From assembly GCF_003334815.1 (NCBI RefSeq), contig NZ_QOWO01000001.1: DNA of 64,000 nt; one strand, written 5' to 3'. Under the pieces are notes generated by a model. It had not been told where the DNA came from, did no database searches, and was given only the letters and a program-made list of their open reading frames with translations. The position numbers were made by a program, and so were the translations under genes. This document shows positions 16,073-17,036 of this stretch, in pieces. The stretch's first letter is position 1, and each line of letters starts with the position of its first letter. The DNA comes from Escherichia coli. Its GTDB lineage: Bacteria; Pseudomonadota; Gammaproteobacteria; Enterobacterales; Enterobacteriaceae.

Positions 16073-16438
16073 ATGGACTGGTATCTGAAAGTACTAAAAA
16101 ATTATGTCGGTTTCCGGGGTCGTGCGCGGCGCAAAGAGTACTGGATGTTTATTCTGGTCAACATCATCTTTACGTTCGTGCTGGGGCTGCTGGATAAAAT
16201 GTTAGGCTGGCAACGCGCTGGTGGCGAAGGCATCCTGACGACAATCTACGGTATTCTGGTGTTTTTACCGTGGTGGGCGGTTCAGTTCCGCCGCCTGCAC
16301 GACACCGACCGCTCGGCGTGGTGGGCACTGCTATTCTTAATCCCGTTTATCGGCTGGCTTATTATCATCGTCTTTAACTGCCAGGCGGGTACGCCAGGCG
16401 AAAACCGCTTTGGACCAGATCCAAAACTGGAACCTTAA
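16073..16438 (+). CDS. yhaH: DUF805 inner-membrane protein YhaH (121 aa)
   Basis: ATG at 16073 with a GAGG Shine-Dalgarno; RRKEYWMF and RRLHDTDRS motifs shared with yhaI. Confidence 0.8.
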   Translation: MDWYLKVLKNYVGFRGRARRKEYWMFILVNIIFTFVLGLLDKMLGWQRAGGEGILTTIYGILVFLPWWAVQFRRLHDTDRSAWWALLFLIPFIGWLIIIVFNCQAGTPGENRFGPDPKLEP

Positions 16439-16679
16439 AACAAATCTGCTCGCCGGATGTCTGACTCATCCGGCTTTTATCATTATGTTGATGAATGAAT
16501 AATTTACTAATGTTTATTTAAAATATTTCAATGTCGTTATATAAATTACCTATAAAAAATAACCATGTATTTATCTTAAATATCAAAACCTTTATAACAT
16601 CCGAAAAAGAAAGATACGAATAGCATTTACACAATACCCGGAATAGACTTTCGTCACTTTTAATTAAAGGGATGTTTTT

Positions 16680-17036
16680 ATGCAGTGGTATTTGTCCGTA
16701 TTAAAAAATTATGTTGGTTTCTCTGGTCGCGCACGTCGTAAAGAGTACTGGATGTTTACTCTGATTAACGCCATCGTCGGCGCTATTATCAATGTCATTC
16801 AATTGATTTTAGGTCTGGAGCTTCCATATCTGTCTATGCTTTATTTGCTGGCAACCTTCCTTCCCGTCCTTGCGCTTGCTATCCGTCGCTTACACGATAC
16901 CGACCGTTCAGGTGCCTGGGCCTTGCTCTTTTTTGTTCCGTTTATTGGCTGGCTCGTGCTTCTGGTTTTTTTCTGCACAGAAGGTACTTCTGGCAGCAAT
17001 CGTTACGGAAACGATCCGAAGTTTGGTTCAAATTAA
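16680..17036 (+). CDS. yhaI: DUF805 inner-membrane protein YhaI (118 aa)
   Basis: Paralog of yhaH with the same conserved motifs; preceded by an AT-rich region. Confidence 0.8.
   Translation: MQWYLSVLKNYVGFSGRARRKEYWMFTLINAIVGAIINVIQLILGLELPYLSMLYLLATFLPVLALAIRRLHDTDRSGAWALLFFVPFIGWLVLLVFFCTEGTSGSNRYGNDPKFGSN

Follow-up and report, generated by a model that had tools for sequence, protein, structure and literature searches.

yhaH and yhaI of Escherichia coli, an old pair of DUF805 paralogs with probably divided roles

A 64,000-nucleotide stretch of Escherichia coli DNA (NCBI RefSeq assembly GCF_003334815.1, contig NZ_QOWO01000001.1; "the window" below) carries two neighboring genes for small membrane proteins of family DUF805, yhaH (16073–16438 bp, plus strand) and yhaI (16680–17036 bp, plus strand). 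Taken as a whole, the data are best explained, with somewhat better than even confidence on our part, by an old pair of paralogs with divided roles and probably oligomeric products. The first gene, yhaH, is most likely the conserved core copy, controlled by a small RNA and needed by certain phages. The second, yhaI, is most likely a dispensable, faster-evolving, AT-rich and silenced copy that can be induced by CpxR or Ler.

The window was a K-12-like piece of E. coli chromosome: a 1321-bp query around the pair found matches in 5422 of the 5426 complete E. coli genomes, and part of these matches reached 100% identity. A preliminary description, made from the letters of the window, had claimed two open reading frames (ORFs), and both were found exactly where it had put them, coinciding with RefSeq coding sequences for proteins of 121 aa (YhaH) and 118 aa (YhaI). 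In the RefSeq record of an identical chromosome the gene order was yqjF, yqjG, yhaH, yhaI, yhaJ (on the opposite strand) and yhaK, and YhaH and YhaI alike bore the product name "DUF805 domain-containing protein". Both genes are already annotated, named, assigned to DUF805 and counted among the poorly characterised "y-ome" genes, and the pair as first described adds nothing to current annotation. By pairwise BLASTP the two proteins were 56% identical over 118 residues (E 7e-48), well above chance and above the limit of 25% set in the preliminary description, indicating true homology. They matched the Pfam model of DUF805 (PF05656) over nearly its whole length, YhaH with E 5.1e-35 (model positions 1–111 of 111) and YhaI with E 6.5e-32 (positions 1–110 of 111). 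A search of NCBIfam gave sub-threshold matches only; among the PADLOC defence-protein models YhaH matched none, and YhaI reached a non-significant E of 0.075 with a generic 4TM effector model.

The two genes differed in their distribution. yhaH was found in 5420 of the 5426 complete genomes, nearly always at ≥95% identity. yhaI, together with the sequence between the genes, was found in 4379 (81%) and was absent from 1047 (19%). In the yhaI-less strains yhaH was followed directly by yhaJ, a gene order as in Salmonella (locus L089), across another yhaH-yhaJ intergenic sequence of 33 bp with its own hairpin, AAGCACCTTGTAAAAGGTGCTT (locus L002, 4143–4185 bp; the window counterpart is 16434–17076 bp), and the C-terminus of YhaH read ...KLEQE instead of ...KLEP. 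An origin of these single-copy strains by simple deletion or recombination between the paralogs was rejected, since the intergenic sequence differed and had a hairpin of its own. IS1 insertions were also seen at the locus in several strains (loci L003, 3288–3985 bp, and L006, 2875–3572 bp; matches H1 and H28): in one strain IS1 stood in place of yhaH and yhaI, in another it interrupted yhaH, and in two further matches it lay within the matched stretch, adjoining yhaH or yhaI. Because IS1 replaces or interrupts genes at the locus, yhaH and yhaI are dispensable in those strains.

A putative sigma-70-type promoter of yhaH was located at 15997–16025 bp (plus strand), with TTTACT (15997–16002), a 17-nt spacer and TATTCT (16020–16025). 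When the upstream regions of E. coli, two Citrobacter species and Salmonella were aligned, these hexamers and their spacing proved conserved; a strict sigma-70 consensus scan of 15700–17200 bp returned no site, the putative promoter falling under its threshold. The predicted transcription start, ~40 nt before the ATG, fits the −43 start of a Salmonella yhaH reporter fusion (PMC5137417). The 5′ untranslated region (UTR; 16032–16072 bp, plus strand) holds a GAGG Shine-Dalgarno sequence and a 20-mer, CTTTAAAAACAAGTGATTGA (16036–16055 bp), which was identical in all four sequences compared, from three genera (Escherichia, two Citrobacter, Salmonella). Non-coding DNA at 15997–16072 bp was highly conserved across Escherichia, Citrobacter and Salmonella. 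A TTG at 16052 bp was considered as the start of yhaH and rejected, the upstream region having indels between species. In Salmonella the stationary-phase small RNA SdsR represses yhaH, whose mRNA has been validated as its target; the region from −43 to +45 is enough for this control, and YhaH protein increases toward stationary phase (PMC5137417). The UTR with its invariant 20-mer is a likely site for this published SdsR/Hfq control. Within the yqjG-yhaH gap, a stretch at 15840–16019 bp varied among E. coli strains (~75% identity with indels, between flanks of ≥98%); it overlapped a weak, sub-threshold Rfam match to naRNA4 (15828–15864 bp, minus strand), which suggests a repetitive extragenic palindromic (REP)-type repeat element.

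The need of certain phages for yhaH is known from published work. A PhiWec188-resistant mutant of E. coli TK001 carried yhaH p.P66_A82del, a deletion that removes the RRLHDTDRS motif (PMC12548472). The same mutant is resistant to PhiWec190 as well, and it becomes sensitive again when given wild-type yhaH (PMC12548472; PMC12695924). As the yhaH mutant is resistant and the wild-type gene complements it, YhaH is a host factor for the Stephanstirmvirinae phages PhiWec188 and PhiWec190. The preliminary description had called DUF805 proteins uncharacterised. For YhaH this no longer fully holds, a 2025 paper having named it a phage host factor (PMC12548472), but for the family it does in so far as no biochemical function has been assigned. 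For a signalling or targeting role, which the preliminary description had suggested, the analysis gave no support.

The genes are laid out as separate transcription units. Terminator-like hairpins followed by T-runs were found after yhaH (16452–16484 bp, plus strand; hairpin 16452–16474, 8 bp with 6 G-C, then TTTTATCATT) and between the convergent yhaI and yhaJ (17047–17074 bp; hairpin 17047–17064, 7 bp with 6 G-C, then TTTTTATTAA), and the yhaH promoter and UTR were conserved across three genera. It had been proposed that each gene has its own Shine-Dalgarno sequence and that yhaI has its own terminator. Both were seen (the Shine-Dalgarno-like sequence of yhaI is AAGGGA), but the terminator is not a feature of yhaI alone.

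The AT-rich spacer between the genes (16439–16679 bp) agreed with its first description: it measured 241 bp, and its GC content was 27.8% overall and as low as 20% in one 150-bp window. It was AT-rich in Citrobacter too, where its sequence was poorly conserved relative to E. coli. H-NS binds AT-rich DNA, and Ler counteracts H-NS. In enterohaemorrhagic E. coli (EHEC) Ler activates yhaI 36-fold, and yhaI is the sole non-mobile gene in that class outside the locus of enterocyte effacement (LEE) (PMC3891560). Because the spacer is AT-rich and Ler activates yhaI to this extent, the spacer would be an H-NS-silenced promoter region of yhaI. In MG1655, overproduction of CpxR raises yhaI expression 3.2-fold by arrays and 40.3-fold by qRT-PCR (PMC2731931), and since this induction is ~40-fold, basal expression of yhaI in K-12 appears low. 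A CpxR-box-like sequence, ATAAACATTAGTAAA (16503–16517 bp, minus strand), lies ~165 bp upstream of yhaI, one mismatch from GTAAA-N5-GTAAA. It is a weak lead and may be a chance match, because matches of this quality were not enriched in the window (65 found, 54 expected). A consensus scan found no strong sigma-70 site in the spacer; an Rfam search in and around it found no RNA family, giving two sub-threshold matches only, upstream of yhaH; and small ORFs inside the spacer were rejected as lacking supporting evidence.

Evidence on whether DUF805 domains act together came from the wider family, which comprised 27,909 representative clusters at E ≤ 1e-3. Among the best 150 family representatives, 24 had the DUF805 domain two to four times within a single chain (proteins with repeats or fusions, P0129–P0262, all come from outside the window). 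Tandem DUF805 genes recurred as well. We compared the window with 80 loci of other species, chosen by similarity to YhaI and so the closest cases, and seven of these carried tandem DUF805 genes: Hafnia, Sulfitobacter, Aquimarina, Solirubrum, a planctomycete, Citrobacter amalonaticus and Polaribacter, the last with three copies (loci L045, L015, L063, L064, L066 and L068 for Hafnia, Sulfitobacter, the planctomycete, Aquimarina, Polaribacter and Solirubrum). The natural chains of two to four repeats and the recurring tandem genes together suggest that DUF805 domains work in pairs or higher oligomers. Members of the family also occur on phages: an unannotated 129-aa DUF805 ORF, 36% identical to YhaI, was found in the Shigella Shiga toxin (Stx) phage 75/02 (locus L090, 2971–3360 bp) and in phage POCJ13, where it adjoins the antirepressor and the nin-region genes and, unlike its neighbors, is read from the other strand, in the manner of a moron.

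This family-level association bears on the strongest alternative, namely that yhaH and yhaI are functionally independent or redundant paralogs whose adjacency is historical and whose products do not interact. The alternative is a serious one, to which we give a good deal less than even weight. It would account for a terminator and a distinct upstream region for each gene, for different regulators (SdsR for yhaH, CpxR and Ler for yhaI), for strains in which yhaI is absent while yhaH stays, and for a phage resistance that follows from a lesion in yhaH alone. The commonness of two-to-four-repeat fusions and the recurrence of tandem genes count against it by suggesting that the domains associate, which is an argument about the family and not about this pair. 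We keep the old pair with divided roles and probably oligomeric products as the preferred reading.

To what extent the pair reflects a local duplication was judged from an alignment of 92 DUF805 domains, from the window and the 80 loci. Residues conserved at 96–100% (YhaH numbering) were F14, G16, R17, R20, E22, W24, P66, R73, R74, L75, H76 and D77, followed by P91, G94, N111, G114, P117 and K118, and all family-invariant residues were retained in both YhaH and YhaI. The motifs shared by the two proteins had been taken as the mark of a local duplication. They were indeed present in both, but GRARRKEYWMF, RRLHDTDRS and NR(F/Y)GxDPK were near-universal among the 92 domains, as a signature of the family at large. 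In the trimmed alignment YhaH and YhaI were 57% identical, and either was 55–61% identical to proteins of Lysobacter, Bacillales, Exiguobacterium and Pseudonocardia; the 56% identity alone thus does not indicate a local event, because DUF805 homologues of other phyla, Actinobacteria among them, are equally similar. A neighbor-joining tree placed the YhaH and YhaI clades side by side with a bootstrap of 14%. In the same tree the copies of Hafnia, of Sulfitobacter and two of those of Polaribacter were mutual nearest relatives (bootstrap 61–69%); the planctomycete copies also paired, but those of Aquimarina and of Solirubrum did not.

The pair is not the product of a recent duplication confined to one lineage. 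C. amalonaticus and C. rodentium had yhaH, an AT-rich spacer, yhaI, yhaJ and yhaK in the same order, and synonymous divergence (dS) between yhaH and yhaI was saturated. Since Citrobacter has the tandem and the copies are saturated in dS, the duplication, if there was one, was old, and by this comparison the yhaH-yhaI pair predates the Escherichia-Citrobacter split. Tandem duplication is common in the DUF805 family, and a local one is still the simplest reading of the pair. It is plausible and weakly supported: the clades are adjacent in the tree, but with that low bootstrap, with motifs that are family-wide and with an identity no higher than to distant homologues.

On another account, which we think rather unlikely, yhaI is foreign, a DUF805 gene that landed beside yhaH with AT-rich upstream DNA before the Escherichia-Citrobacter split and was then silenced. 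The composition of the locus is as such an arrival would leave it: yhaI has 44.8% GC (0.46 at third codon positions, GC3) and its spacer 27.8% in surroundings of 51–55% GC, the same contrast is seen in Citrobacter, and yhaH itself has 51.9% GC and a GC3 of 0.62. A low GC3 is also possible through low expression. YhaI was 61% identical to proteins of Exiguobacterium or Pseudonocardia and 57% to YhaH, and the clade of the two had a bootstrap of 14%; the tree nevertheless joins them as a point estimate, and the sister copies of Hafnia, Sulfitobacter and Polaribacter indicate that local duplication is common. A foreign yhaI would likewise fit the absence of the gene from Salmonella and from 19% of E. 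coli, its activation by an H-NS antagonist, Ler, and the carriage of DUF805 genes by phages (PHROG 12855; Stx phages). Inspection of ORFs and sequence revealed no mobile-element remnants beside yhaI within the window, which counts against such an arrival.

Rates of evolution set the two copies further apart. Between Escherichia and Citrobacter, YhaI was 62% identical and YhaH 86%. Nonsynonymous divergence (dN) from Citrobacter was 0.31–0.33 for yhaI and 0.08–0.09 for yhaH, so that yhaI evolved ~4 times faster. The ratio dN/dS for yhaI was 0.16–0.21 against Citrobacter and 0.06 between the two Citrobacter species, and for yhaH it was 0.04 against C. rodentium. By these ratios both genes are under purifying selection, and therefore neither is a pseudogene; the published induction of yhaI, ~40-fold by CpxR and 36-fold by Ler, agrees, and the pseudogene that the preliminary description had named as a refutation was not found. 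That yhaI is decaying toward loss is accordingly very improbable and largely refuted by dN/dS: its absence from 1047 of 5426 genomes, the IS1 insertions, the low apparent basal expression in K-12 and some frameshifted database variants would fit decay, but both major alleles, like the Citrobacter gene, keep an unbroken reading frame, the family-invariant residues are all kept and the gene is strongly inducible.

Within E. coli, yhaI was dimorphic in a segment encoding the second and third hydrophobic helices (16815–16987 bp, plus strand). Two alleles differed there at 52 of 173 nt (30%), between flanks that were ~99% identical, as was the spacer. Between the alleles the segment had a dS of 1.5 and a dN of 0.21, and dS outside it was 0.05. 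Among the complete genomes 2093 carried the K-12-type allele, 2209 the other and 77 intermediates, and at least one protein was a clear recombinant. An origin of the divergent segment by gene conversion from yhaH was rejected, both alleles being similarly identical to yhaH in a codon alignment with no conversion tract, and so was Citrobacter as the donor of either segment, both being only 56–60% identical to Citrobacter yhaI. Because neither allele looks converted by yhaH or closer to Citrobacter, the comparison indicates that in one of them the segment came from a lineage roughly as far removed as another genus. At the protein level the changes were conservative hydrophobic swaps, and therefore the dimorphism calls for no more than ordinary recombination of an allele that is old and divergent, though selection may also have a part in it.

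In hydropathy plots of YhaH and YhaI, three hydrophobic helices came after a short amphipathic helix at the N-terminus. An AlphaFold model (predicted local distance difference test, pLDDT, 90.4) predicted helices at residues 2–12, 20–44, 54–77 and 82–103, the last broken at 90–92. Averaged over the family, Lys and Arg numbered 5.5 in the N-terminal tail and 2.8 in the RRLHD loop, placing both inside, and 0.6 in the first loop, placing it outside. The N-terminal tail and loop 2 together held 10 Lys/Arg in YhaH and 8 in YhaI; the counts for the opposite side were 4 and 2. A simple three-span topology with the N-terminus inside would put the C-terminus outside, and the "cytoplasmic tail" of the preliminary description clashes with it; domain fusions favor a cytoplasmic tail. 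After DUF805, with no extra hydrophobic segment, came an FHA domain in P0226, a zinc ribbon in P0189 and HEAT repeats in P0246, the last of these having a zinc ribbon at its N-terminus too. In five proteins a zinc ribbon stood N-terminal to DUF805. Of the proteins with two repeats, 17 of 21 had a short non-hydrophobic linker and 3+3 hydrophobic segments. A long Zoogloea ORF contained DUF805 alone in a Pfam scan. These repeats and fusions are at odds with the three-span topology, N-in/C-out, that is usually assumed for the family. A YhaH-GFP fusion was fluorescent at the membrane and formed aberrant foci without YidC, in a screen limited to proteins with cytoplasmic C-termini (PMC3225971). The Lys/Arg counts, the cytoplasmic type of the fused domains and the fluorescence of the C-terminal GFP fusion would be accommodated most simply by DUF805 proteins with both termini in the cytoplasm. 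An antiparallel YhaH/YhaI pair of opposite orientations, like paired small multidrug resistance (SMR) genes, might be thought of for adjacent small membrane-protein genes with an odd number of hydrophobic segments each, and if all segments cross the membrane, the two-repeat fusions that lack a linker helix would come out antiparallel, but the idea is contradicted by the charge counts (10 and 8 against 4 and 2, the same pattern in both proteins) and by the same Arg-rich motifs in both repeats of fused proteins, and we regard it as hardly credible.

For the favored pair of paralogs with divided roles, a mechanism can be sketched as follows. DUF805 domains would act as pairs or higher oligomers. 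Both termini would lie in the cytoplasm, and the cytoplasmic face could then carry one site made up of three invariant polar motifs: G-R-x-x-R-x-E-x-W ahead of helix 1, R-R-L-H-D following helix 2 and N-x-x-G-x-x-P-K in the tail. Helix 3, the last hydrophobic one, would not be a plain membrane span but a helix-break-helix with its break at the invariant Pro91/Gly94. YhaI may serve as a stress-induced alternative subunit, alone or with YhaH. A fuller version, in which DUF805 oligomers have cytoplasmic termini and a re-entrant helix 3, the YhaH complex is the route of some phages through the inner membrane, a YhaI subunit alters phage susceptibility or envelope-stress tolerance and the yhaI alleles are kept by selection, is speculative and, taken as a whole, improbable.

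Several points weigh against the favored explanation and its mechanism. YhaH and YhaI are joined as sisters with the low bootstrap given above (14%), the contact between the two proteins is putative, and the binding of H-NS to the yhaI spacer is something that we infer. Mutation of yhaH alone blocks the phages, and if the host has yhaI, then YhaI does not replace YhaH. As to the re-entrant helix 3, hydropathy gives three segments long enough to span the membrane, helix 3 is continuous in a predicted model of a natural fusion, and 4 of the 21 two-repeat proteins have one more hydrophobic helix, which is what a topology with three spans and the C-terminus outside would call for.

The additions made here are modest: a fifth of E. 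coli lack yhaI, the alleles of the gene are deeply dimorphic and the evidence on topology conflicts, points that were not found in the literature searched. DUF805 itself deserves attention, with ~28,000 representative clusters, 50–60% identity between phyla, unusual for a small membrane protein, and no known activity. E. coli offers a selectable DUF805 phenotype in the phage resistance of the yhaH mutant. For yhaI it offers natural comparisons, as strains may lack the gene or carry one or the other of two strongly differing alleles. Should the usual three-span picture prove wrong, thousands of proteins would need a corrected annotation.

Compared with known systems, YhaH and YhaI do not differ from the Pfam DUF805 family, of which they are ordinary members with a full-model match and every invariant residue. 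NfrB for N4-like phages, ManYZ for lambda and PtsG for HK97 are inner-membrane host factors needed after adsorption. YhaH resembles these host factors in lying in the inner membrane and in that its loss blocks specific phages that also need a lipopolysaccharide receptor (PMC12548472; PMC12695924), but is unrelated to them in sequence. The SMR proteins (EmrE, MdtJI) and Fluc/CrcB are likewise small, and they share with DUF805 adjacent gene pairs, internally duplicated fusions and dimers, those of DUF805 being presumed. No sequence or fold similarity of YhaH or YhaI to either group was found, and the partners and repeats of DUF805 share their Lys/Arg bias, so that a parallel arrangement would be expected, unlike in those families. 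PglC, a monotopic phosphoglycosyl transferase, is anchored by a re-entrant helix-break-helix. Its anchor may be compared with helix 3 of DUF805, and only with that helix, in having a hydrophobic stretch of ~20 residues with an invariant mid-helix proline, predicted to span and with ends apparently on the same side; DUF805 differs in its two further hydrophobic helices and in having no catalytic domain.

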